From IMG/VR virus record IMGVR_UViG_2713896902_000007, positions 1 through 15,120 of that record: 15,120 nucleotides of DNA. One strand, written 5' to 3'. Shown here in pieces: positions 1-9,695 of this stretch; positions within the stretch are counted from its first letter, which is position 1; every line of letters starts with the position of its first letter. Source of the stretch: a virus. Taxonomy: Duplodnaviria; Heunggongvirae; Uroviricota; Caudoviricetes. Both the position numbers and the translations under genes were made by a program. Below the pieces are notes generated by a model. It ran no database searches. It was not told the origin of the DNA and was given only the letters and a program-made list of their open reading frames with translations.

Positions 1-555
1 ATGCTTATTGGCTATGTACGTGTGTCAACAAATGACCAGAACACAGATCTACAACGTAATGCGCTGAACTGTGCAGGATGCGAGCTGATTTTTGAAGACA
101 AGATAAGCGGTACAAAGTCCGAAAGGCCGGGACTGAAAAAACTGCTCAGGACATTATCGGCAGGTGACACTCTGGTTGTCTGGAAGCTGGATCGGCTGGG
201 GCGTAGTATGCGGCATCTGGTCATTCTGGTTGAGGAGTTGCGCGAACGTGGCGTTAATTTTCGCAGCCTGACGGATGCTATTGATACCAGCACACCGATG
301 GGGCGTTTTTTCTTTCATATGATGGGTGCCCTGGCTGAAATGGAACGAGAACTGATTGTTGAACGAACAAAAGCTGGACTGGAAGCTGCTCGCGCACAGG
401 GACGAATTGGTGGACGTCGTCCCAAACTTACACCAGAACAATGGGCACAAGCCGGAAGATTAATTGCAGCAGGAACTCCTCGCCAGAAGGTGGCGATTAT
501 CTATGATGTGGGTGTATCGACTTTGTATAAGAAGTTTCCGGTCGGAGATAAATGA
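1..555 (+). CDS. Serine recombinase / DNA invertase (Hin/Gin/Pin/Cin family), apparently full length
   Basis: 184-aa ORF starting MLIGYVRVSTNDQNTDLQ (catalytic-serine N-terminus typical of the family), resolvase-like core, C-terminal HTH (GVSTLYKKF). Length fits the ~185-195 aa of these invertases. The ATG is base 1 of the window, so promoter and any crossover site upstream are unseen. Confidence 0.9.
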   Translation: MLIGYVRVSTNDQNTDLQRNALNCAGCELIFEDKISGTKSERPGLKKLLRTLSAGDTLVVWKLDRLGRSMRHLVILVEELRERGVNFRSLTDAIDTSTPMGRFFFHMMGALAEMERELIVERTKAGLEAARAQGRIGGRRPKLTPEQWAQAGRLIAAGTPRQKVAIIYDVGVSTLYKKFPVGDK

Positions 556-593
556 AACCGTAGCACGTCGTATGCAAGATCGTGCTGCGGTTT
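554..593 (+). terminator. Stem-loop immediately after the invertase stop codon (putative terminator)
   Basis: aaaccgtagcacg (558-570) pairs with cgtgctgcggttt (581-593) as a 13-bp stem (one G-U wobble) around a 10-nt loop, starting 2 nt after the TGA; the downstream run is only moderately U-rich. Confidence 0.35.
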
Positions 594-612
594 ATGCTTA
601 TCACTTAAAGAC

Positions 613-1482
<870 letters not shown>

Positions 1483-1572
1483 CTAACCCTTTGAATTTAC
1501 ATAGCGCAAAAAGATACCTTTCCTCATAATGTGAGCTAATTTTATGTTTCGTTTGATGATTGGACCGGTCTC

Positions 1573-1597
1573 GAAAACCGTAGGCACGTAGTATGCG
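1573..1597. repeat. Imperfect ~25-bp direct copy of the invertase 3' flank
   Basis: gaaaaccgtaggcacgtagtatgcg (1573-1597) closely matches gaaaccgtagcacgtcgtatgcaag (554-578); a ccggtc motif precedes both (537-542 and 1565-1570). The two copies bracket the GIY-YIG gene. Confidence 0.4.
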
Positions 1598-1788
1598 TTA
1601 ATTTATGAACAAACTACTTGTCTGCTGTTTTTCTGTCATTAGTCGTATATAGAATGATTCTCTATGCCTAACAAAGCATCACCAGTGCTAGATTACGTTG
1701 TAGTCACTGTTTAAATATCCAGATAAAACATTTCCTTCTGGGTTGAATGAGTGATAGAGTTTCACCCATTAGACCCCTTGGAGGAATT

Positions 1789-3222
1789 ATGTCTGAATTT
1801 GAAGTGTTGGCACAGCATCTGCTGAAGGAAGCCGAGGCGGAAGAAAAGCTGCGACAGGAAAATGATAAAAAGCTTATCGAGAAAGTGCTGGAAATCTATG
1901 ATCAGAAGTATGTGGCTGAATTACTGAGAAAAGTCGGAAAAAATGAGTGGAGCCGTGAAACCATTAACCGCTGGATTAATGGCAAGTGTTTACCAAAATC
2001 GTTGACTTCAGTAGAAGAGTCTCTTCTGCGTAAGATGCTACCAGAACCACCTGCAAACCATCCGGAATATGCTTTCCGCTTCATTGACTTATTTGCTGGA
2101 ATTGGAGGGATACGGAAAGGTTTTGAGGCCATTGGAGGCCAGTGTGTTTTTACCAGTGAATGGAATAAAGATGCTGTGCGTACATACAAGGCCAACTGGT
2201 TTAACGATGAACAGGTGCATAAATTCAATCTCGATATTCGGGAAGTCACGCTGAGTGATAAAACCGATGTATTGGAAACGGATGCTTATGCATATATTGA
2301 TGAGCATGTGCCGGATCATGATGTGCTTCTTGCGGGGTTCCCGTGCCAGCCATTTAGCCTTGCTGGTGTTAGTAAGAAAAACTCACTTGGTCGTGCGCAT
2401 GGTTTTGAATGTGAAGCACAAGGAACACTTTTTTTTGACGTGGCACGTATTATACGAGCAAAAAAACCGGCAATTTTTGTGCTGGAAAATGTCAAAAATC
2501 TGAAGAGCCATGATAAGGGTAAAACTTTCAAAGTCATTATGGAGACCCTTGACGAGCTGGGCTACGAAGTTGCCGATGCTGCAGAAATGGGAAAAAACGA
2601 TCCAAAGATTATCGATGGGAAGCATTTTTTGCCTCAGCATCGTGAACGCATTGTTCTGGTCGGATTTAGACGAGATCTGAATATTCACAAGGGGTTTACC
2701 TTGCGTGATATCAGTCGTTTTTATCCGGAACACCGCCCATCATTTGGTGAATTGCTGGAGCCTGTAGTCGATAGTAAATATATACTTACGCCAAAACTAT
2801 GGGAGTACCTTTATAACTACGCCAAAAAGCATGCAGCCAAGGGGAATGGTTTTGGCTTTGGGTTGGTCAATCCTGAGAATAAGGAAAGCATTGCACGCAC
2901 ACTTTCTGCCAGATATCACAAAGACGGATCAGAAATTCTTATTGATCGTGGTTGGGATATGGCAACGGGAGAGGCTGACTTTATGAATGAGAGTAACCAG
3001 GCTCGTCGACCACGCAGGCTGACTCCCCGAGAGTGCGCACGCCTTATGGGGTTTGAAAAACCTGGAGGGAAACCATTCCGTATTCCGGTTTCAGATACTC
3101 AGTCATATCGGCAGTTCGGTAACTCCGTTGTGGTGCCAGTATTTGAAGCCGTTGCCAGACTTCTGGAACCCTATATCCTCAAAGCTGTTTCTGCTGATGC
3201 TGGTAAGACTGGGCAGCCTTGA
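1789..3222 (+). CDS. ecoRIIM: DNA cytosine-5 methyltransferase, Dcm / M.EcoRII family (CCWGG expected)
   Basis: Collinear with E. coli Dcm / M.EcoRII as I recall them: [14 protein letters not shown] (AdoMet motif I), [11 protein letters not shown] (catalytic PC motif), ENVKNL, C-terminal QFGNSV. Preferred start is ATG 1789 (GGAGG at 1780-1784, 4-nt spacer), giving 477 aa; the track start at 1747 has no obvious SD. Confidence 0.9.
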
Positions 3223-3228
3223 GAACAC

Positions 3229-3251
3229 CTCCCGGCCTTTTAAGCCGGGAG
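3229..3251. terminator. Hairpin between the convergent M and R genes
   Basis: ctcccggc (3229-3236) / gccgggag (3244-3251), 8-bp stem with a 7-nt loop, lying in the 34-bp gap between the two stop codons. No clear U-tract on either side. Confidence 0.3.
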
Positions 3252-3256
3252 TCAGC

Positions 3257-4465
3257 CTATGATAGTTCAGCGTAAAGTTCTATCAGCTCAGTAATGAATG
3301 CTCCGAGCGTTATTAATTCTTCTCTAACTGCTTCTGGGTATTTTTTATGTAAAGTTGATGGTACAACGAGTCTGACACCCGCATCTTTCATTTCTCGGTA
3401 TTGTGCTGAAGAAACACCTTCTTGCAGCGTAAATAAATGTACCTGATGGATTTTATTTGCTTCATTCAGTATCTGACGCCAGCGATCTTTGCAGGTGGTC
3501 TTTACTGCCAGCATACGTAAGTTTTCTACAGGAAATTCAACGTTATGATATGCCTCTGCTGAAGGAAACAGGAAATCTGGTTTTTTATTACCTTCAGTAA
3601 CTGCCTGAGTGGAGAAATGCCGTAGTCCGTGCTCGATAAAAAGCTTCTCTAGGTGAAGTTCAAGTGATTTACCTGCCCTTGATTTACGTCGATTACTGAC
3701 AGAGTTGGCTAATGCAATAAACTCATCTACAGAATCGAATCCTTTCTTAATAATATCAAGAACATGTAATTCCTCGACGAGTAGAAAAATATCATACTCG
3801 ACACGCCGACGGTCAATCAGTTGCTCATCTGGATCCTTGGAGTTTTTAGCATAATGGCCAGCAGCATATTGAATAATTTCGTTTCCAGAAGGAAAACGCT
3901 TCTTCCAGTCTTCAGGAATAACATATTTATGATTTACTGGAGTTTGCTGAAGAGACAATCCGCCCAAAATTTGTCCGGCAGGGCCGGAAATTAGGGTTCC
4001 AGGTATGATTTCGCCAATAGCAGACTCGATGATATCCTCTTCATCGGGATTGACGCAGACCCATATATCTACCTCGGAACAGTCAGTGTTCTGTTCGTTT
4101 AACCTGAAGGCAAGAATTGTGAGGGCTCCTGTATTTTCAGGGTTCTGTAATGGACTTCCTCTCCCCCAGCGCGTAATTCTTTTTTCGTTTCGGGTCTTAC
4201 CAAAATAACGGTTGTTGTAATAAATTGCGCGTGCTTGGGTATCAGGGCAATCATGGGATGATACATGCGCAGTAAGGAAGACTGAAGGGTTCAGTTCGCG
4301 AGTATGATTGATAGATGGAAAAAGCTTTTCAACGATATTTGAGGGGATATAAAGTCCGACCTGATGGCCACCTGTTGCGCCTGTGTCGTTTGCAGAAAGG
4401 CGTTTGATGTAGATAAAGTAATTCCCGCTTGCGATATCAAGCAGCCAGTTATGAAAAACCGACAT
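3257..4465 (-). CDS. ecoRIIR: Type IIE restriction endonuclease, R.EcoRII-like
   Basis: Translation MSVFHNWLLDIA...KRLSANDTGATGGHQVGLYIPS... matches my recollection of R.EcoRII (N-terminal effector domain plus C-terminal catalytic domain) along its length. It is convergent with the Dcm-like methyltransferase, as in the EcoRII system. Start preferred at the second ATG (4465; AAGGG 6 nt upstream); 4471 is the alternative. Confidence 0.85.
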   Translation of the reverse strand: MSVFHNWLLDIASGNYFIYIKRLSANDTGATGGHQVGLYIPSNIVEKLFPSINHTRELNPSVFLTAHVSSHDCPDTQARAIYYNNRYFGKTRNEKRITRWGRGSPLQNPENTGALTILAFRLNEQNTDCSEVDIWVCVNPDEEDIIESAIGEIIPGTLISGPAGQILGGLSLQQTPVNHKYVIPEDWKKRFPSGNEIIQYAAGHYAKNSKDPDEQLIDRRRVEYDIFLLVEELHVLDIIKKGFDSVDEFIALANSVSNRRKSRAGKSLELHLEKLFIEHGLRHFSTQAVTEGNKKPDFLFPSAEAYHNVEFPVENLRMLAVKTTCKDRWRQILNEANKIHQVHLFTLQEGVSSAQYREMKDAGVRLVVPSTLHKKYPEAVREELITLGAFITELIELYAELS

Positions 4466-4540
4466 ATACATCCCTTTGTTAACATACAGTCAGGGTTAAC
4501 ATTTTTCCATAGTTATAGATAAGCGGCTAGGAACTTAAGG

Positions 4541-4573
4541 GAAAAACAAAAAACCCGCATAAGCGGGCTTTTG
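4541..4573. terminator. Short GC hairpin flanked by A-run and T-run (possible bidirectional terminator)
   Basis: cccgc-ataa-gcggg (4554-4567), followed by cttttgtg on the plus strand and preceded by gaaaaacaaaaaa (a U-run when read on the minus strand). Lies between the R gene start and the crr-like repeats. Confidence 0.35.
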
Positions 4574-4856
4574 TGTCACTCGAGAGCCGCGGCTCCTTTG
4601 CGTATCCTTTTTTGTCTCCTCACCGTCTGGTCGGTGTCCTGCTGAGACTGCTAACTTCCTGTTTTTGTTGGTGTTGTCCTTACACCGTCCAATCATGATT
4701 GGTGGGCTGGCGGAGTTTGAATAAATATTATATTGCTTTGATTTTTAACGATTTTGTTTAATTCAGTTTTTGTGCGTATACCTAATCGTATACCAATGGC
4801 TGTAAGTTAATGTGAAATGAAAGCGCATTTTTACTTGGATTGATGCTATATCGTAC

Positions 4857-5164
4857 AGGAAAAAAATTTTTTTTCGAAAGAACTGTTCACACTGTTCACC
4901 CTTTGATTTTATCCTTTTATTTCAGAGTGATAGGTGGTTAATAATGGGTGAAGGGTGAACATTCGATTCTTCACCTCCGGCATTCTGCCGGTGTGACTCA
5001 TACCGGTGATTAATCCCCCGTACTGAAAATCGCACAGGGAGAAAAAAGTTTTTTTTGATTTGATTGTTCACACTGTTCACATTTCGTTTTTCTCTTTTAA
5101 TTTCAGTGTGATAACGAGTGAATATACGGTGAAGGGTGAACAGTGGATTGTTCACCTTCGGGGG
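4857..5164. repeat. crr-like cis replication region: two ~125-bp direct repeats carrying TGTTCAC(C) iterons
   Basis: Repeat 1 is 4857-4980, repeat 2 is 5037-5164, with a 56-bp spacer. Each contains tgttcacactgttcac plus inverted ggtgaaca/tgttcacc copies. This matches the described architecture of P4 crr (two 120-bp repeats about 60 bp apart, type I iterons bound by alpha), and it lies just downstream of the alpha gene. Confidence 0.7.
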
Positions 5165-5173
5165 ATGTCGGGA

Positions 5174-5200
5174 TAAAAAAAAGACCGGCAGATGCCGGTC
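5174..5200 (-). terminator. Rho-independent terminator downstream of alpha
   Basis: On the minus strand: hairpin gaccggca-tctg-ccggtc (5183-5200 on plus) followed by a U8 run (A-run 5174-5182 on plus), about 8 nt after the alpha stop codon. Confidence 0.55.
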
Positions 5201-5207
5201 AGGTGGG

Positions 5208-7541
5208 TCAGGTTGTTGCAGGGTCGTCACATTTTGGCAGCCAGTCGCCGTAGCTTTCCTCTTTCAGTGTCAGGTTGGTCTGTATCCCCTGTTTGGTATG
5301 GCGCTTCTCGTAATTCAGTCCGTATTCCTTCAGCATCACCGGCAGCCCCAGTCCGAACATTTTCAGACTGAGTACGTTCCGGTAGCCGTTTGCCTCCATG
5401 TAGGCCAGATAGGCGTGATAGAGGTATTTACGGTAATTACGCGGGATGATACTGGCGTTCCCCATATACATGCCGCTGGTCTGCGGCAGGGTTTCCAGAT
5501 AGCCGATAAAATCAAACGTCGGGTCGGCATCCCGTTTGATGTTCAGCGCCTCGTCTGAGTTCTGCTGGGACTGAAGCAGTGACCGGGCGAGCATCGGGTC
5601 GCTGAACTTCTGCATCAGGTGACGCACGATGACCGCCAGCTCGCGGGTGATTTTGTCCTTAAGCTGCGGGTCGCGCTCCTGCGGGGCTATCTGTTCCGGG
5701 AAGTGAATAATCACCCGCCGGCGTGACACGCCGCCGCTGCGGTCGGTGAAGCGCATCGGGTTATTGTTCACGGCCAGAATCACCGCCGGGATATGCGTGG
5801 AGTATGCATCCCGGTATTTCGGGTCAACGGACACCGCATCGCCGCCGGTGATGGCCTTGAGTCCGGCACCGTCGCCGCTCCATTTTTCCTGGTCCGGCAG
5901 GCGTATCAGTGAGAAGCCAGTTAACGCGGCACGTTCACGCGGGGATTCCAGCGTCTCAATGGTGGCCGACGTGGCGTTATCCTCCCCGGCCAGCAGGGTG
6001 GCTATTTCGGCCATGATACTTTTGCCGCTGCCGCCGGGACCGGTCACCTCCAGAAAGAGCTGCCAGTCGTAGCGGTTTGCCAGCACCATAAACAGTGCGG
6101 CCAGAATCACGTCGCGTTTTTCCGCACGGCCACCGGCGGCACGGTCAAGCCAGCGCCAGAACGCGGGGGCGTGGGTTTCCAGCGTTTCCCCTTCCACCGG
6201 CGGGGTGAAATCCACATCGCACAGGGTACGCATCCAGTGTGACGGACTGTGCGGGTGGAACGTGCCGTTCTGTGTGTCGAGCACGCCGTTACGAAAGCCA
6301 ATCAGGCGGCGGGAGGGGGCTTCCTGCTGCGGAATAATCAGCTTCAGGGTGTCCACCACGGAGGCCACCTTCCCGGAGGAGAACGGCGCGCGCAGACGCT
6401 GAAACAGCCCGGCCACATCCCGGGCAAAGTCCTGTGGCGGCAGCACCTTCCAGACACCATTTTCATAACGGGACAGAAGCTGGCCGTTGGCATCGACCGC
6501 GAGCGCCTCGCCGTAATGCTCATAGATACGCATGGCCTTTTCGCTGGTACTCATGGCGGAAAACTCCGCTTCGCTCATGGTGTCGAACGGGCTTTCAGCC
6601 GGTGGCCGGATGGCATCGTAAATGGCCTTACGGGTGGCTTCCCCGCCGTACTGCGTGAAGGCATCATTCCAGTCACCGAAGACCGGCGGCAGGGCAACAA
6701 CACCTTCACACGCATCTGCGGCTGCGGCGGCTTTTTTCTGGCCGTCACCGCTGAGGTCACGGTCTGCGGCAAGGACAATCTGACAGGCCGGATGCTTCTG
6801 CCGGGCAAGGCTGGCCAGAGAAAGGAGGTTCACGGAAGAAAGCGCCACCATCACCGTTTCACCGGTCAGGTGATGTACGGTAAGTGCGGTCGCGTATCCC
6901 TCCGCTATCCACAGACGTTTTCCGGCCTGATTCTGTCCTTCAAGGATGTGACAGGTGCCCCTGACCTGCCCGCCTTTCAGGGTGCGCTTACGGCCGTCAG
7001 CGCTGATTAACTGAAGGTTAACCAGTTCGCCGCTGTCGTCATACAGTGGCACCACAAGGTCACCGGCGCGCCAGCTCACGCCACCGGCTCTGTGTGTGCC
7101 GGTCAGCATCCGGCATTCCCGGCCGGGAAAGCCCTTGCGGGTCAGGTAGGCGTTACCGGTTCCGGTACGGGTTTTCGCCATCAGGGTTTGTGCCAGTGCG
7201 GCGGCGTTCTTCCGGGCAGCGTCTGTTTCAGCACCGGCGGCGGCCGTCACTGCCGGGTCAGCCGGGGGCAGGCTGCCGGTCACGGCAGCCACCTTTGTGG
7301 CCGCGTCGGACGGGGAGACACCAAACACCTTTTCAACCAGTTTCAGGCCGTCACCGGCACCACACTGATTGCAGTACCAGGTGCCGCGCCCCTCCCTGTC
7401 ATCAAAACGGAAGCGGTCACTCCCGCCACAGACCGGACAGGGCTGATGACGGTTCTTCAGCACCTGAATCCCCAGCGCCGGGAGAATACGCGGCCAGTGG
7501 CCGAGCGCATGGCTGACGGTGGCGGTTACGTTCATTTTCAT
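5208..7541 (-). CDS. alpha: P4 alpha-like primase-helicase (replication initiator)
   Basis: 777-aa ORF (the length of P4 alpha). N-terminal zinc-finger primase signature CPVCGG...CNQCG, Walker A-like GPGGSGKS in the helicase part. AAGGAG lies 9 nt upstream of the ATG. Flanked by crr downstream and iterons 4.9 kb upstream. Confidence 0.9.
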   Translation of the reverse strand: MKMNVTATVSHALGHWPRILPALGIQVLKNRHQPCPVCGGSDRFRFDDREGRGTWYCNQCGAGDGLKLVEKVFGVSPSDAATKVAAVTGSLPPADPAVTAAAGAETDAARKNAAALAQTLMAKTRTGTGNAYLTRKGFPGRECRMLTGTHRAGGVSWRAGDLVVPLYDDSGELVNLQLISADGRKRTLKGGQVRGTCHILEGQNQAGKRLWIAEGYATALTVHHLTGETVMVALSSVNLLSLASLARQKHPACQIVLAADRDLSGDGQKKAAAAADACEGVVALPPVFGDWNDAFTQYGGEATRKAIYDAIRPPAESPFDTMSEAEFSAMSTSEKAMRIYEHYGEALAVDANGQLLSRYENGVWKVLPPQDFARDVAGLFQRLRAPFSSGKVASVVDTLKLIIPQQEAPSRRLIGFRNGVLDTQNGTFHPHSPSHWMRTLCDVDFTPPVEGETLETHAPAFWRWLDRAAGGRAEKRDVILAALFMVLANRYDWQLFLEVTGPGGSGKSIMAEIATLLAGEDNATSATIETLESPRERAALTGFSLIRLPDQEKWSGDGAGLKAITGGDAVSVDPKYRDAYSTHIPAVILAVNNNPMRFTDRSGGVSRRRVIIHFPEQIAPQERDPQLKDKITRELAVIVRHLMQKFSDPMLARSLLQSQQNSDEALNIKRDADPTFDFIGYLETLPQTSGMYMGNASIIPRNYRKYLYHAYLAYMEANGYRNVLSLKMFGLGLPVMLKEYGLNYEKRHTKQGIQTNLTLKEESYGDWLPKCDDPATT

Positions 7542-7555
7542 GGTGTTGTTCTCCT

Positions 7556-7876
7556 TCAGTGCAGTACCGGCGCTTTTATGTGACGGGCACAGAGTTCATC
7601 CATCACAACCAGCCCGAGAAAGGACAGCGACGGCGCGGCCTTCAGGGGGCCGGATTCCATTAAATCTTCCAGCAGGGCACAGGCTATCTGACGCCCTTTT
7701 TCCTCACCGTGCTGGCGCAGATAAAAGCCTTCCAGCTCAGCGGCGATGGCCGCCTCCAGTGACTCAAGGGTGAGATGCGGGTAGCGGTGCTGACGTTCGC
7801 ACACGGTCAGCCAGGCACAGGCGACAGCGCGACGGTAAAGGGCAGCGCGTAAGACGGGCGGTAAGGGTGTTTTCAT
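7556..7876 (-). CDS. cnr: Small protein immediately upstream of alpha (P4 cnr-like by position and size)
   Basis: 106-aa ORF with SD GGGAGG 7 nt upstream; it occupies the position of the P4 copy-number regulator. Assignment is by synteny and length only. Confidence 0.5.
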
Positions 7877-8011
7877 TTGCTTTCCTCCCTGTGACAGATG
7901 ACTGCATTCCGTGCCGGTTGCATTAACTGATAAGGCATATCTGCGTCTCCTGAAGACGTGCGTATCCCTGCGCGAATACGCACATTTAATTTTTCGGGTG
8001 TCGTTTTTTAA

Positions 8012-8467
8012 TTACAGATAATTGCGGTAACTGTTATCCGGGGTGATTTCCGGGTCAGGCTCCGTGCGGGGAATTTCCCGCCATTCCCGCGCCACCGGTG
8101 CCGCCCGGCTGGCCGGAACAGGGTCCTGCGGGTAAATATCCAGATATTTCTCCCGCCATTTCTGTAATTCCGGGTCTCCGGCCATTTCTTTCAGTACCGC
8201 ATGCCGGTTTACGGGGCTGCGTCTGAACAGGTCAGGACGGTCACAGGTAAATTCCCGCAAAAAACGCCCCAGCGGGATGTCTGTGGTGCGCCCGTCAGCG
8301 AGGATACGCACAAGGATACTGAATTTACGGCGGTACGGGTTCCAGACAATGTCCGGGCAGCGGTACGGCATTTCCCACGGAATACCGTCTTCCAGAATGC
8401 CGACCACGGCCACATCGGGAAAACCGGCAGAACGGTAAATCTCACCGGGCTGGGGAAAATCAAACAT
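8012..8467 (-). CDS. P4 orf151-like hypothetical protein
   Basis: 151-aa ORF in the expected position of the left operon; its start overlaps the end of the preceding gene by 8 bp (8460-8467). Confidence 0.55.
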   Translation of the reverse strand: MFDFPQPGEIYRSAGFPDVAVVGILEDGIPWEMPYRCPDIVWNPYRRKFSILVRILADGRTTDIPLGRFLREFTCDRPDLFRRSPVNRHAVLKEMAGDPELQKWREKYLDIYPQDPVPASRAAPVAREWREIPRTEPDPEITPDNSYRNYL

Positions 8468-8747
8468 GCGTCCTGTCTCCCCGGTCTTTCTGCTGGGCGA
8501 GAAAATCGCGGCACAGGCCTTTGGCTTTCAGCTCATTCAGCACAAAATCAATATCTTCATTCAGGTAACTGAAAATATGCGGAATGTAGAGCTGATGCAG
8601 GCCGGAGAGTTCACGGTGAATCAAATCACCCCCAACAAACTGGGATACGGCGCTGGCGCGGTTGAGCTTATGGTAAGCCTCAATGCTGAGGTGTTCACGG
8701 GCGTCATGACGCGCTGAGACGGTCTGAGGGGCTTTTTTATTACGCAC
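8460..8747 (-). CDS. epsilon: P4 epsilon-like protein (putative helper-prophage derepressor)
   Basis: 95-aa ORF with a GTG start at 8747 (GGGGG 6 nt upstream), syntenic with P4 epsilon. Identity is inferred from position and size; I cannot verify the sequence from memory. Confidence 0.45.
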
Positions 8748-8937
8748 GGGACACCCCCATCACCGGCAGACGGGCAGCAAGGGAGAGCACATAGTCACGG
8801 ACAAGGGAACGGCGGGCACTGCGTTCATCACCGGCGACGGTGCGAAGCATGCAGATACGGGGATGACGGTCTGCGCGACGGACAGCGGCAAACACAAAGA
8901 CAAATTCAGGGTGTGAGGGGGTAAGGGTTGTAGCCAT
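8740..8937 (-). CDS. Small ORF (65 aa) with a strong SD, first gene after the immunity-like leader (kil-like by position)
   Basis: ATG at 8935-8937 preceded on the minus strand by AAGGAGG with a 7-nt spacer; stop at 8740-8742, 3 bp from the epsilon-like GTG. In the track it is the in-frame 3' part of the 211-aa ORF 8740..9375, whose upstream part I consider non-coding. Confidence 0.25.
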
Positions 8938-8939
8938 AA

Positions 8940-9232
8940 GGCAGCCTCCTTCGAGTAGCAAATAACTGCTATCGCCGGAGTTCTCACGCTCGATGGCGAT
9001 AGCCCAGACGGGGGTGAGAATACCGGCCTCGAAGAATACCGGCCAGCCCGGAGGCTGCCCCGCCTGAGCTACCATTGACTCAGTGGCATAACATGTGATT
9101 GCGAACAGGATCATACCTGCACGGCAAACCACACGCCACACCATAATCTGGCGCTCTGTGGCGTTGATTGCGACACAAAAAAAGACGCATGGCGCGTCAT
9201 ATGTCGCCTTCGAGTTACACGGGTTCTCACGC
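8940..9232 (-). promoter_or_regulatory. Putative P4-type RNA immunity leader (seqA/seqB/seqC-like complementary elements)
   Basis: Direct repeats ccttcgagt ... gttctcacgc occur at 9207-9232 and 8947-8989. Between them, 9012-9034 (gggtgagaataccggcctcgaag) is complementary to both. 9050-9059 (ggaggctgcc) is the reverse complement of 8940-8949, which overlaps the SD of the small ORF. Confidence 0.35.
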
Positions 9233-9326
9233 CCGGCTGCCGATTTTGCGGCAGCGGAAAAACTATATCCGCAAATGCCGGAAAAAGGCAAGCCAGAAAA
9301 AGGGAGTTTTTGCAGAACAGGCATCA

Positions 9327-9593
9327 TCATGCGTCGTACCCCCGTTTGCGTCCGGCAATGCGCCCGGCCATCCATGCAGTGACTTCAGAGTGCAGCCAGG
9401 CCACATTTTTACCGCCAAGACTCACCTGCGGCGGAAATTCCCCCTTACGGATGAGTTCATAGATGGTCGAGCGTGACAGGCCGCACAGGTGCATCACTTC
9501 CGGCAGACGTAAAAAACGCTCCTGCGTGATGTCCGGCAGCGGAATCAGTGGCGTTACAGGAGCGGGAGACGGGGAAGAAAAAACAGCTTGCAT
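9327..9593 (-). CDS. vis: Vis / AlpA-family DNA-binding regulator (excision and late-control protein)
   Basis: 88 aa, with the characteristic AlpA HTH: [26 protein letters not shown]...NVAW...EVTAWM. It is the first gene of the leftward operon, facing the iteron cluster. Confidence 0.8.
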
Positions 9594-9695
9594 CGGGCTA
9601 CCTCGTTAATGTCCATACAGCACCGGATAAGTCCGTCCGGCTTCGGGTAGCGCTTTATTTTGTGAATATTTTCAGCAGACGCAACAGGGGGGATT

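Follow-up and report, generated by a model that had tools for sequence, protein, structure and literature searches.

A predicted EcoRII-type restriction–modification cassette at the attachment-site end of an ssrA-integrated temperate prophage in Escherichia coli

EcoRII is among the best-characterised type IIE restriction enzymes. The closest known system to the locus considered here is that of the IncN plasmid N3 (pN3, NC_015599; endonuclease structures PDB 1NA6, 3HQF and 3HQG), in which the methyltransferase gene (M, 30097-31530, + strand) and the endonuclease gene (R, 31564-32778, - strand) converge on a 33-bp gap. A second point of reference is the dcm-vsr locus of E. coli K-12, where Dcm is a solitary methyltransferase, with vsr overlapping the 3' end of its gene and no endonuclease partner. 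A third is provided by P4-like satellites, which carry defence genes in a hotspot corresponding to the psu-int interval; restriction–modification (R-M) systems are among the known cargos of this hotspot (Rousset et al. 2022, PMC9122126). Here, we describe an R-M pair in a 15,120-nt stretch of viral DNA (the window hereafter; positions 1 to 15,120 of the IMG/VR record IMGVR_UViG_2713896902_000007, Caudoviricetes), with M at 1789-3222 (+ strand) and R at 3257-4471 (- strand). The pair is an ordinary EcoRII orthologue of a very well known kind. From sequence comparison, we are confident in assigning 1707-4544 as an apparently intact EcoRII-type type IIE cassette, carried as accessory cargo at the attachment (att) end of a temperate prophage that is integrated at ssrA, the gene for transfer-messenger RNA (tmRNA).

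Both proteins match their pN3 counterparts in length (477 and 404 aa) and align with them without gaps, M being 90.4% identical (431/477) and R 85.9% identical (347/404). The convergent gene order is also that of pN3, as are the stem of a hairpin in the intergenic gap and a block of ~82 bp upstream of M, and the catalytic and CCWGG-recognition residues are identical. The original prediction, made from the DNA alone, was of a complete EcoRII-type (CCWGG) pair, and these identities, together with the intact catalytic and recognition residues, bear it out. The setting of the cassette is, however, quite different: pN3 is a conjugative plasmid and plasmid genes flank its cassette, whereas that of the window lies on a chromosomal prophage and is flanked by attP and by the gene for a GIY-YIG type IV restriction enzyme, PD-T4-3/CMoRE (CMoRE hereafter). 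Moreover, the window cassette represents a distinct allele class, with ~80% nucleotide identity to that of pN3, and the substitution D339N occurs in the window R alone. Homology to the plasmid cassettes spans window positions 1706/1707 to 4533, thus ending within the region upstream of R (4472-4544, - strand).

The open reading frame of R extends to 4471 and encodes 404 aa, as do the PDB 1NA6 chain and the pN3 gene; the RefSeq start, at 4465, would give a protein of 402 aa. The Pfam families EcoRII-N (3.9e-61, residues 18-165) and EcoRII-C (4.8e-71, residues 229-393) both match at full length, and the protein thus has the architecture of the R.EcoRII family, namely, an N-terminal B3-like effector domain followed by a C-terminal PD-(D/E)XK catalytic domain. 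The match to the EcoRII crystal chain of PDB 1NA6 (E = 1.5e-242) covers residues 1-403, such that an experimental structure is available at 86% identity to the window protein. A list of 27 functional residues was taken from the paper describing the R.EcoRII–DNA complexes (PMC2770665), and all 27 of these catalytic, CCWGG-reading and effector-domain residues are retained. The endonuclease motifs, which the original prediction had marked for checking by alignment, are undisrupted: the catalytic residues E271, D299, K324 and E337 are all present. Likewise, the residues that read the CC:GG half-site (K328, D329, R330 and N260) and those that line the pocket for the flipped base (R222, E225, Y226, F229, R265 and A266) are conserved, as are 13 contact residues of the N-terminal domain (N28, H36, Q37, Y41, R81, Y85, K92, T93, R94, E96, R98, T100 and R101). 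Arg88, which is mutated in 1NA6, is also conserved in the window R. Taken at the level of sequence, these features predict type IIE behaviour for the enzyme.

The evidence for M is of a similar kind. Its open reading frame could be extended to an in-frame ATG at 1747; the start at 1789 is preferred because it is preceded by the motif GGAGG at 1780-1784, gives a protein of 477 aa, as in M.EcoRII, and is that used by RefSeq, and the use of the upstream ATG is unlikely. RefSeq entry WP_001288444.1 is identical to the resulting protein. The Pfam families DNA_methylase (4.7e-78) and DNA_meth_N (7e-27) match at full length, the NCBIfam model PRK10458 ('DNA cytosine methylase') gives 927 bits, above its cut-off of 710, and PADLOC labels M as MTase_II and R as REase_II. 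Six motifs of the C5-cytosine methyltransferases are recognizable, namely, I (FAGIG at 102), IV (PCQ at 185, with Cys186), VI (ENV at 233), VIII (QHRER at 283), IX (TPRE at 412) and X (GNSV at 444), and all six occupy the same positions in pN3 M.EcoRII. Between motifs VIII and IX, residues 301-420 are 95% identical to M.EcoRII, and the predicted target of the enzyme is the inner cytosine of CCWGG.

The ~82-bp block immediately upstream of M (1707-1788, + strand), which includes the presumed ribosome-binding site at 1780-1784, shows almost no variation between the window and the plasmid cassettes of pN3 and AR_0119, although these are otherwise only ~80% identical to it; farther upstream, the sequences are unrelated. 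Methyltransferases of the M.EcoRII type are reported to repress their own genes, the N-terminal helix-turn-helix domain acting at an operator overlapping the promoter (PMC3874152). Because the conserved block fits this mode of autoregulation, the block probably comprises, by analogy, the promoter together with an operator for autorepression by M. A search upstream of M at seed 6 found no inverted repeat resembling an operator, the palindrome TTTAAA alone being recovered.

M and R lie tail to tail over an intergenic gap of 34 bp (3223-3256). The hairpin within it, at 3229-3251, consists of an 8-bp GC stem (CTCCCGGC and GCCGGGAG) closed by a 7-nt loop, and both the gene arrangement and the hairpin are as first proposed. 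The folding energies are -16.3 kcal/mol for the + strand and -20.0 kcal/mol for the - strand (z of about -2.4 and -2.5, respectively), and 4 of 200 shuffled sequences fold equally well. The shorter gap of pN3 (33 bp) retains this stem but has a different loop. Also as proposed, there is no vsr-like gene: a tblastn search with K-12 Vsr against the whole window returned noise only (best E = 1.7). The suggestion that this absence sets the locus apart is not upheld, since the genes of the pN3 prototype converge in the same way and leave no space for vsr; its lack is normal for EcoRII cassettes. Furthermore, dcm-vsr is present in 5359 of the 5426 complete E. coli genomes (98.8%) to which all genome counts given here refer, and this near-universal locus would itself supply Vsr. 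A dcm-vsr-like identity for the window locus was considered and rejected: Dcm and M belong to the same methyltransferase subfamily (PRK10458), with 64% amino acid identity and, by inference, the same CCWGG target, but in the window the methyltransferase gene is followed by that of its cognate endonuclease and, as the Vsr search indicates, not by vsr.

The ownership of the cassette is seen most clearly in E. coli R12, where the pin-CMoRE-M-R block lies directly at the 3' end of ssrA with no satellite present. The R12 prophage (~41 kb) reads, in order, integrase, lambdoid regulators, terminase, head, contractile-tail genes, tail fibres, pinE, GIY-YIG (CMoRE) gene, M and R; ssrA comes after R, and the prophage integrase is 40 kb off. 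A 188-bp direct repeat, 92.6% identical between its two copies, flanks the prophage and combines 36 nt from the 3' end of ssrA with 152 nt of the sequence that follows it, which contains a terminator. As an att homology for an ssrA prophage, a repeat of 188 bp (7558-7744 and 48608-48795 of locus L003) is unusually long, and it supplies a substitute terminator for ssrA. In the window, alignment to R12 and to strain ETEC1730 places a copy of this repeat at 4545-4721, at the boundary between the prophage and the neighbouring satellite. Positions 4545-4698 resemble the sequence downstream of ssrA, with a terminator called at 4549-4572 by the terminator scan, and 4699-4721 correspond to the final ~23 nt of ssrA in degenerate form, with two 1-nt deletions. 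Scans for tRNA, tmRNA and Rfam families found no RNA gene within or beside the R-M pair; the ssrA fragment escapes them because it is too short and degenerate. The attachment region additionally matches attP of the ssrA-integrating phage LLS. At its other end, the window begins in the tail-fibre region of the prophage, with the gene for a Pin-type serine DNA invertase (1-555, + strand; Pfam Resolvase and HTH_7), the counterpart of which, pinE, stands beside the tail-fibre genes in R12. The edges of the window coincide with gene starts: its first base is that of the pin ATG and its last is the first base of the start codon of the satellite integrase, and, consequently, the intact ssrA and the remainder of the prophage lie just outside it.

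The cassette recurs in this position on other phages. A circular record of 43.7 kb from strain CT01, which looks like an excised phage, contains tail-fibre assembly, acyltransferase, GIY-YIG, M and R genes, an attP-like region, dinI and int, and a lambda-like prophage has the GIY-YIG-M-R block downstream of lom and tail-fibre genes. Conversely, related prophages carry pin and the GIY-YIG gene without R-M, their homology to the window ending near 1583-1596. Given the layout and flanking repeats of R12, the CT01 circle, the lambda-like prophage and the relatives that lack it, the R-M pair is a swappable accessory cassette located between the tail fibre and attP of temperate phages; here, no other cargo separates it from the attachment site of a temperate, ~41-kb prophage at ssrA. 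Among isolated phages, no INPHARED record has the cassette, DNA matches being limited to the att region of LLS and Ayreon, and the closest matches to the R protein in INPHARED phages are 38-40% identical.

The distribution of the cassette among genomes reveals two allele classes. The chromosomal (prophage) class, at no less than 99% nucleotide identity to the window, accounts for 263 records, and the plasmid class, at ~80% identity, for about 150. None of the best matches among the E. coli genome records falls between 90 and 99% nucleotide identity; the two classes are therefore discrete. In PLSDB, 1929 plasmids cover at least 80% of the query, and nearly all of these are ~80% identical to it.

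The near-identity to the characterised EcoRII system allows us to infer how the cassette would operate. M would methylate C5 of the inner cytosine in CCWGG, and its N-terminal DNA-binding domain would probably repress its own promoter at the conserved block 1707-1788. R would be an autoinhibited dimer, the N-terminal B3-like domains of which have to engage additional CCWGG sites; only then would the C-terminal PD-(D/E)XK core flip the central base pair and cleave unmethylated CCWGG. Transcription of M and R would converge on the shared hairpin, and a lysogen would be expected to restrict incoming DNA that carries several unmethylated CCWGG sites.

Several observations weigh against reading the locus as a fully effective R-M system. 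The activity and specificity ascribed to this allele are predictions from 86-90% identity to EcoRII. Position 339 of R, two residues past the catalytic E337, is Asp in every relative compared (pN3, 1NA6 and four close E. coli relatives), and D339N (codon at 3457-3459) is private to the window protein. A promoter scan upstream of M and R gave no strong sigma-70 match, with 8 sites against 6.9 expected in the region. Neither strand has a run of T residues after the hairpin, and the terminator scan made no call there. A further point concerns the host: Dcm methylates the same sites, such that other E. coli DNA would mostly be pre-protected and the defensive benefit may be narrow. Since host Dcm methylates CCWGG too, M is largely redundant in E. 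coli, and, Dcm being near-universal, restriction by R would be expected chiefly for DNA of dcm-negative origin; for the same reason, a methylome of the native host cannot distinguish M activity from that of Dcm. It might thus be argued that the cassette is chiefly selfish or stabilizing, or is decaying, rather than serving as an effective defence, with M redundant alongside Dcm and R perhaps weakened by D339N next to the active site, or adding little. The prevalence of dcm-vsr given above would favour such an interpretation, as would the report that Dcm attenuates EcoRII post-segregational killing (PMC3874152). Moreover, the region does decay: in ETEC1730, the closest genome to share this tandem array of elements (12562-13880 of locus L001), an IS66 element truncates pin and the CMoRE gene is frameshifted. 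In that same genome, M and R are intact. Against this interpretation, both window open reading frames are full length with all known functional residues intact, and the allele is conserved at 99% or above across its 263 records, although recent spread may equally explain so tight a cluster. Additionally, the presence of Dcm would neutralize an addiction role, which argues against selfish stabilization as the selected function in E. coli. Overall, we regard the selfish or decaying alternative as unlikely, and an intact cassette remains the preferred interpretation.

The gene that adjoins M on its upstream side, in divergent orientation across a 402-bp region (1387-1788), encodes CMoRE (613-1386, - strand; PADLOC PD-T4-3, E = 2.7e-140) and, as judged by eye, is ~99% identical to the crystallised CMoRE of E. 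coli O157:H7 (PDB 9U75). CMoRE, a GIY-YIG nuclease of type IV, is reported to degrade DNA containing 5-hydroxymethylcytosine (5hmC) or glucosyl-5hmC and to spare DNA with cytosine or 5-methylcytosine (5mC), and it is known as a single-gene defence (PMC12923530). By contrast, in the window it is contiguous with M and R, an arrangement shared by 243 genomes (~92% of the 263 allele records); the GIY-YIG gene alone occurs in 823 genomes. Term searches of that paper did not reveal any EcoRII-type R-M system described as a partner of CMoRE (PMC12923530). The near-constant association of CMoRE with this R-M allele is the only point here that is even mildly new. CMoRE activity would be compatible with an adjoining methyltransferase that writes 5mC, and would complement the cutting of unmodified CCWGG by R, since 5hmC and glucosyl-5hmC DNA is not expected to be cut by an EcoRII-type enzyme. 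Tentatively, the three genes could form a co-selected and co-mobilized module that sorts DNA by the state of its cytosines: unmodified CCWGG would be cut by R, 5-methyl-CCWGG would be treated as self and 5hmC or glucosyl-5hmC DNA would be cut by CMoRE. We consider this possible, but doubtful. The three genes appear to have spread together in recent times, reaching temperate phages with at least two types of tail module; alternatively, the linkage could simply be hitch-hiking on a single attP-int module that has been successful.

On the far side of the attachment-site repeat lies a P4-like satellite (4722-15120, its alpha/att end starting at ~4699-4722), which is a separate element. The original prediction placed the R-M pair directly adjacent to a satellite cargo slot and suggested a composite defence island. 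It is indeed next to the satellite, but only to its alpha/att end: the alpha primase end abuts the pair, with 228-250 bp between R-M and the satellite att end, whereas the psu-int cargo slot (12023-13926) is at the opposite end of the satellite, 7.5 kb away, and the R-M pair is on the prophage. Assignment of the pair as satellite cargo was accordingly rejected, as 1789-4471 is outside both the psu-int interval and the satellite att repeat at 4699-4721. The resemblance to the P4 hotspot is confined to the carriage of defence cargo by a mobile element in E. coli, close to an attachment site; in the hotspot, that cargo occupies the psu-int interval (PMC9122126), whereas the window R-M is located beyond the satellite's att repeat.

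A looser version of the proposal would hold that the R-M pair is functionally coupled to the satellite, or part of it, the two constituting a recurrent composite defence island that includes the cargo slot. The short distance to the satellite att end, the occurrence of three defence-type loci within 15 kb and the knowledge that P4-like satellites carry R-M systems in their hotspot (PMC9122126) can all be cited in its favour. Nevertheless, that hotspot is at the other satellite end, a degenerate ssrA 3' fragment and the prophage att repeat separate the two, and the R-M/satellite junction is found in six genomes only, compared with 263 records of the allele. Moreover, each element occurs alone: R-M is found without the satellite, as in R12, and satellites with the same end adjoin ypjA in genomes that lack R-M. 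ETEC1730 holds the full array of prophage, R-M, satellite and intact ssrA. The tmRNA gene is an integration hotspot for many prophages and P4-like satellites (PMC10121019). Given the rarity of the junction, the independent occurrence of each element and the shared hotspot, the adjacency is an incidental outcome of tandem integration at the tmRNA gene and not a recurrent composite unit, and functional coupling, already largely refuted, is most improbable. The satellite is an independent element at the same ssrA site, its proximity to R-M a by-product of that tandem integration. As a description of the window, with CMoRE, R-M and an HEC-07-like gene inside 15 kb, the term composite defence island stands; as the name of a recurrent unit, it does not.

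The satellite itself encodes the alpha primase (5208-7541), delta (10876-11376), psu (11450-12022) and an integrase (13927-15120), in addition to DUF5375, a derepression protein, an Ash/Icd-like protein and AlpA. Rfam matches in its immunity region, at 8992-9268 on the - strand, comprise C4 antisense RNA, isrK and the c4-a1b1 target. Arm-type integrase repeats (CGTATACCTAAnCnTATACCAAT) are present at 4775-4797 and recur beside int in ETEC1730; the arm-type sites CGTATACCTAATCGTATACCAAT lie within these satellite-end repeats. Downstream of alpha, there are two blocks of iteron-like GTTCAC/GGTGAA repeats at 4880-5160. These resemble the alpha-binding sites of P4 crr/ori type. The psu-int slot holds a single cargo gene (12294-13877, + strand) that encodes 527 aa, has a low GC content (35%) and gives no Pfam match. 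Its product matches the PADLOC candidate HEC-07 (E = 6.8e-29) and has an NsnC-like C-terminal stretch; in ETEC1730, the same slot is occupied by a SIR2 gene and an ATPase pair.

The recognition sequence is itself scarce in the window. There are 14 CCWGG sites (at 330, 1082, 2997, 3061, 3999, 5888, 7377, 7811, 9396, 10025, 10597, 11590, 11844 and 14905), compared with 26.6 +/- 4.8 in dinucleotide-preserving shuffles, and none of the 200 shuffles had fewer than 14; in the satellite, 9 sites are present where ~21-25 would be expected. This scarcity, which is relative to the shuffled sequences, might indicate that these mobile elements avoid EcoRII-type restriction.

Taken alone, the significance of the locus is small, since R-M systems on prophages are already well documented, as are tandem elements at the tmRNA gene. 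What had been read as a single composite island is replaced by two separate mobile elements side by side. More generally, E. coli has two discrete EcoRII lineages, one of plasmid type and the other of prophage type, ~80% identical at the nucleotide level and with the latter almost always linked to CMoRE. The CMoRE-linked prophage EcoRII thus offers a testable example of layered restriction against both unmodified and hypermodified phage DNA.

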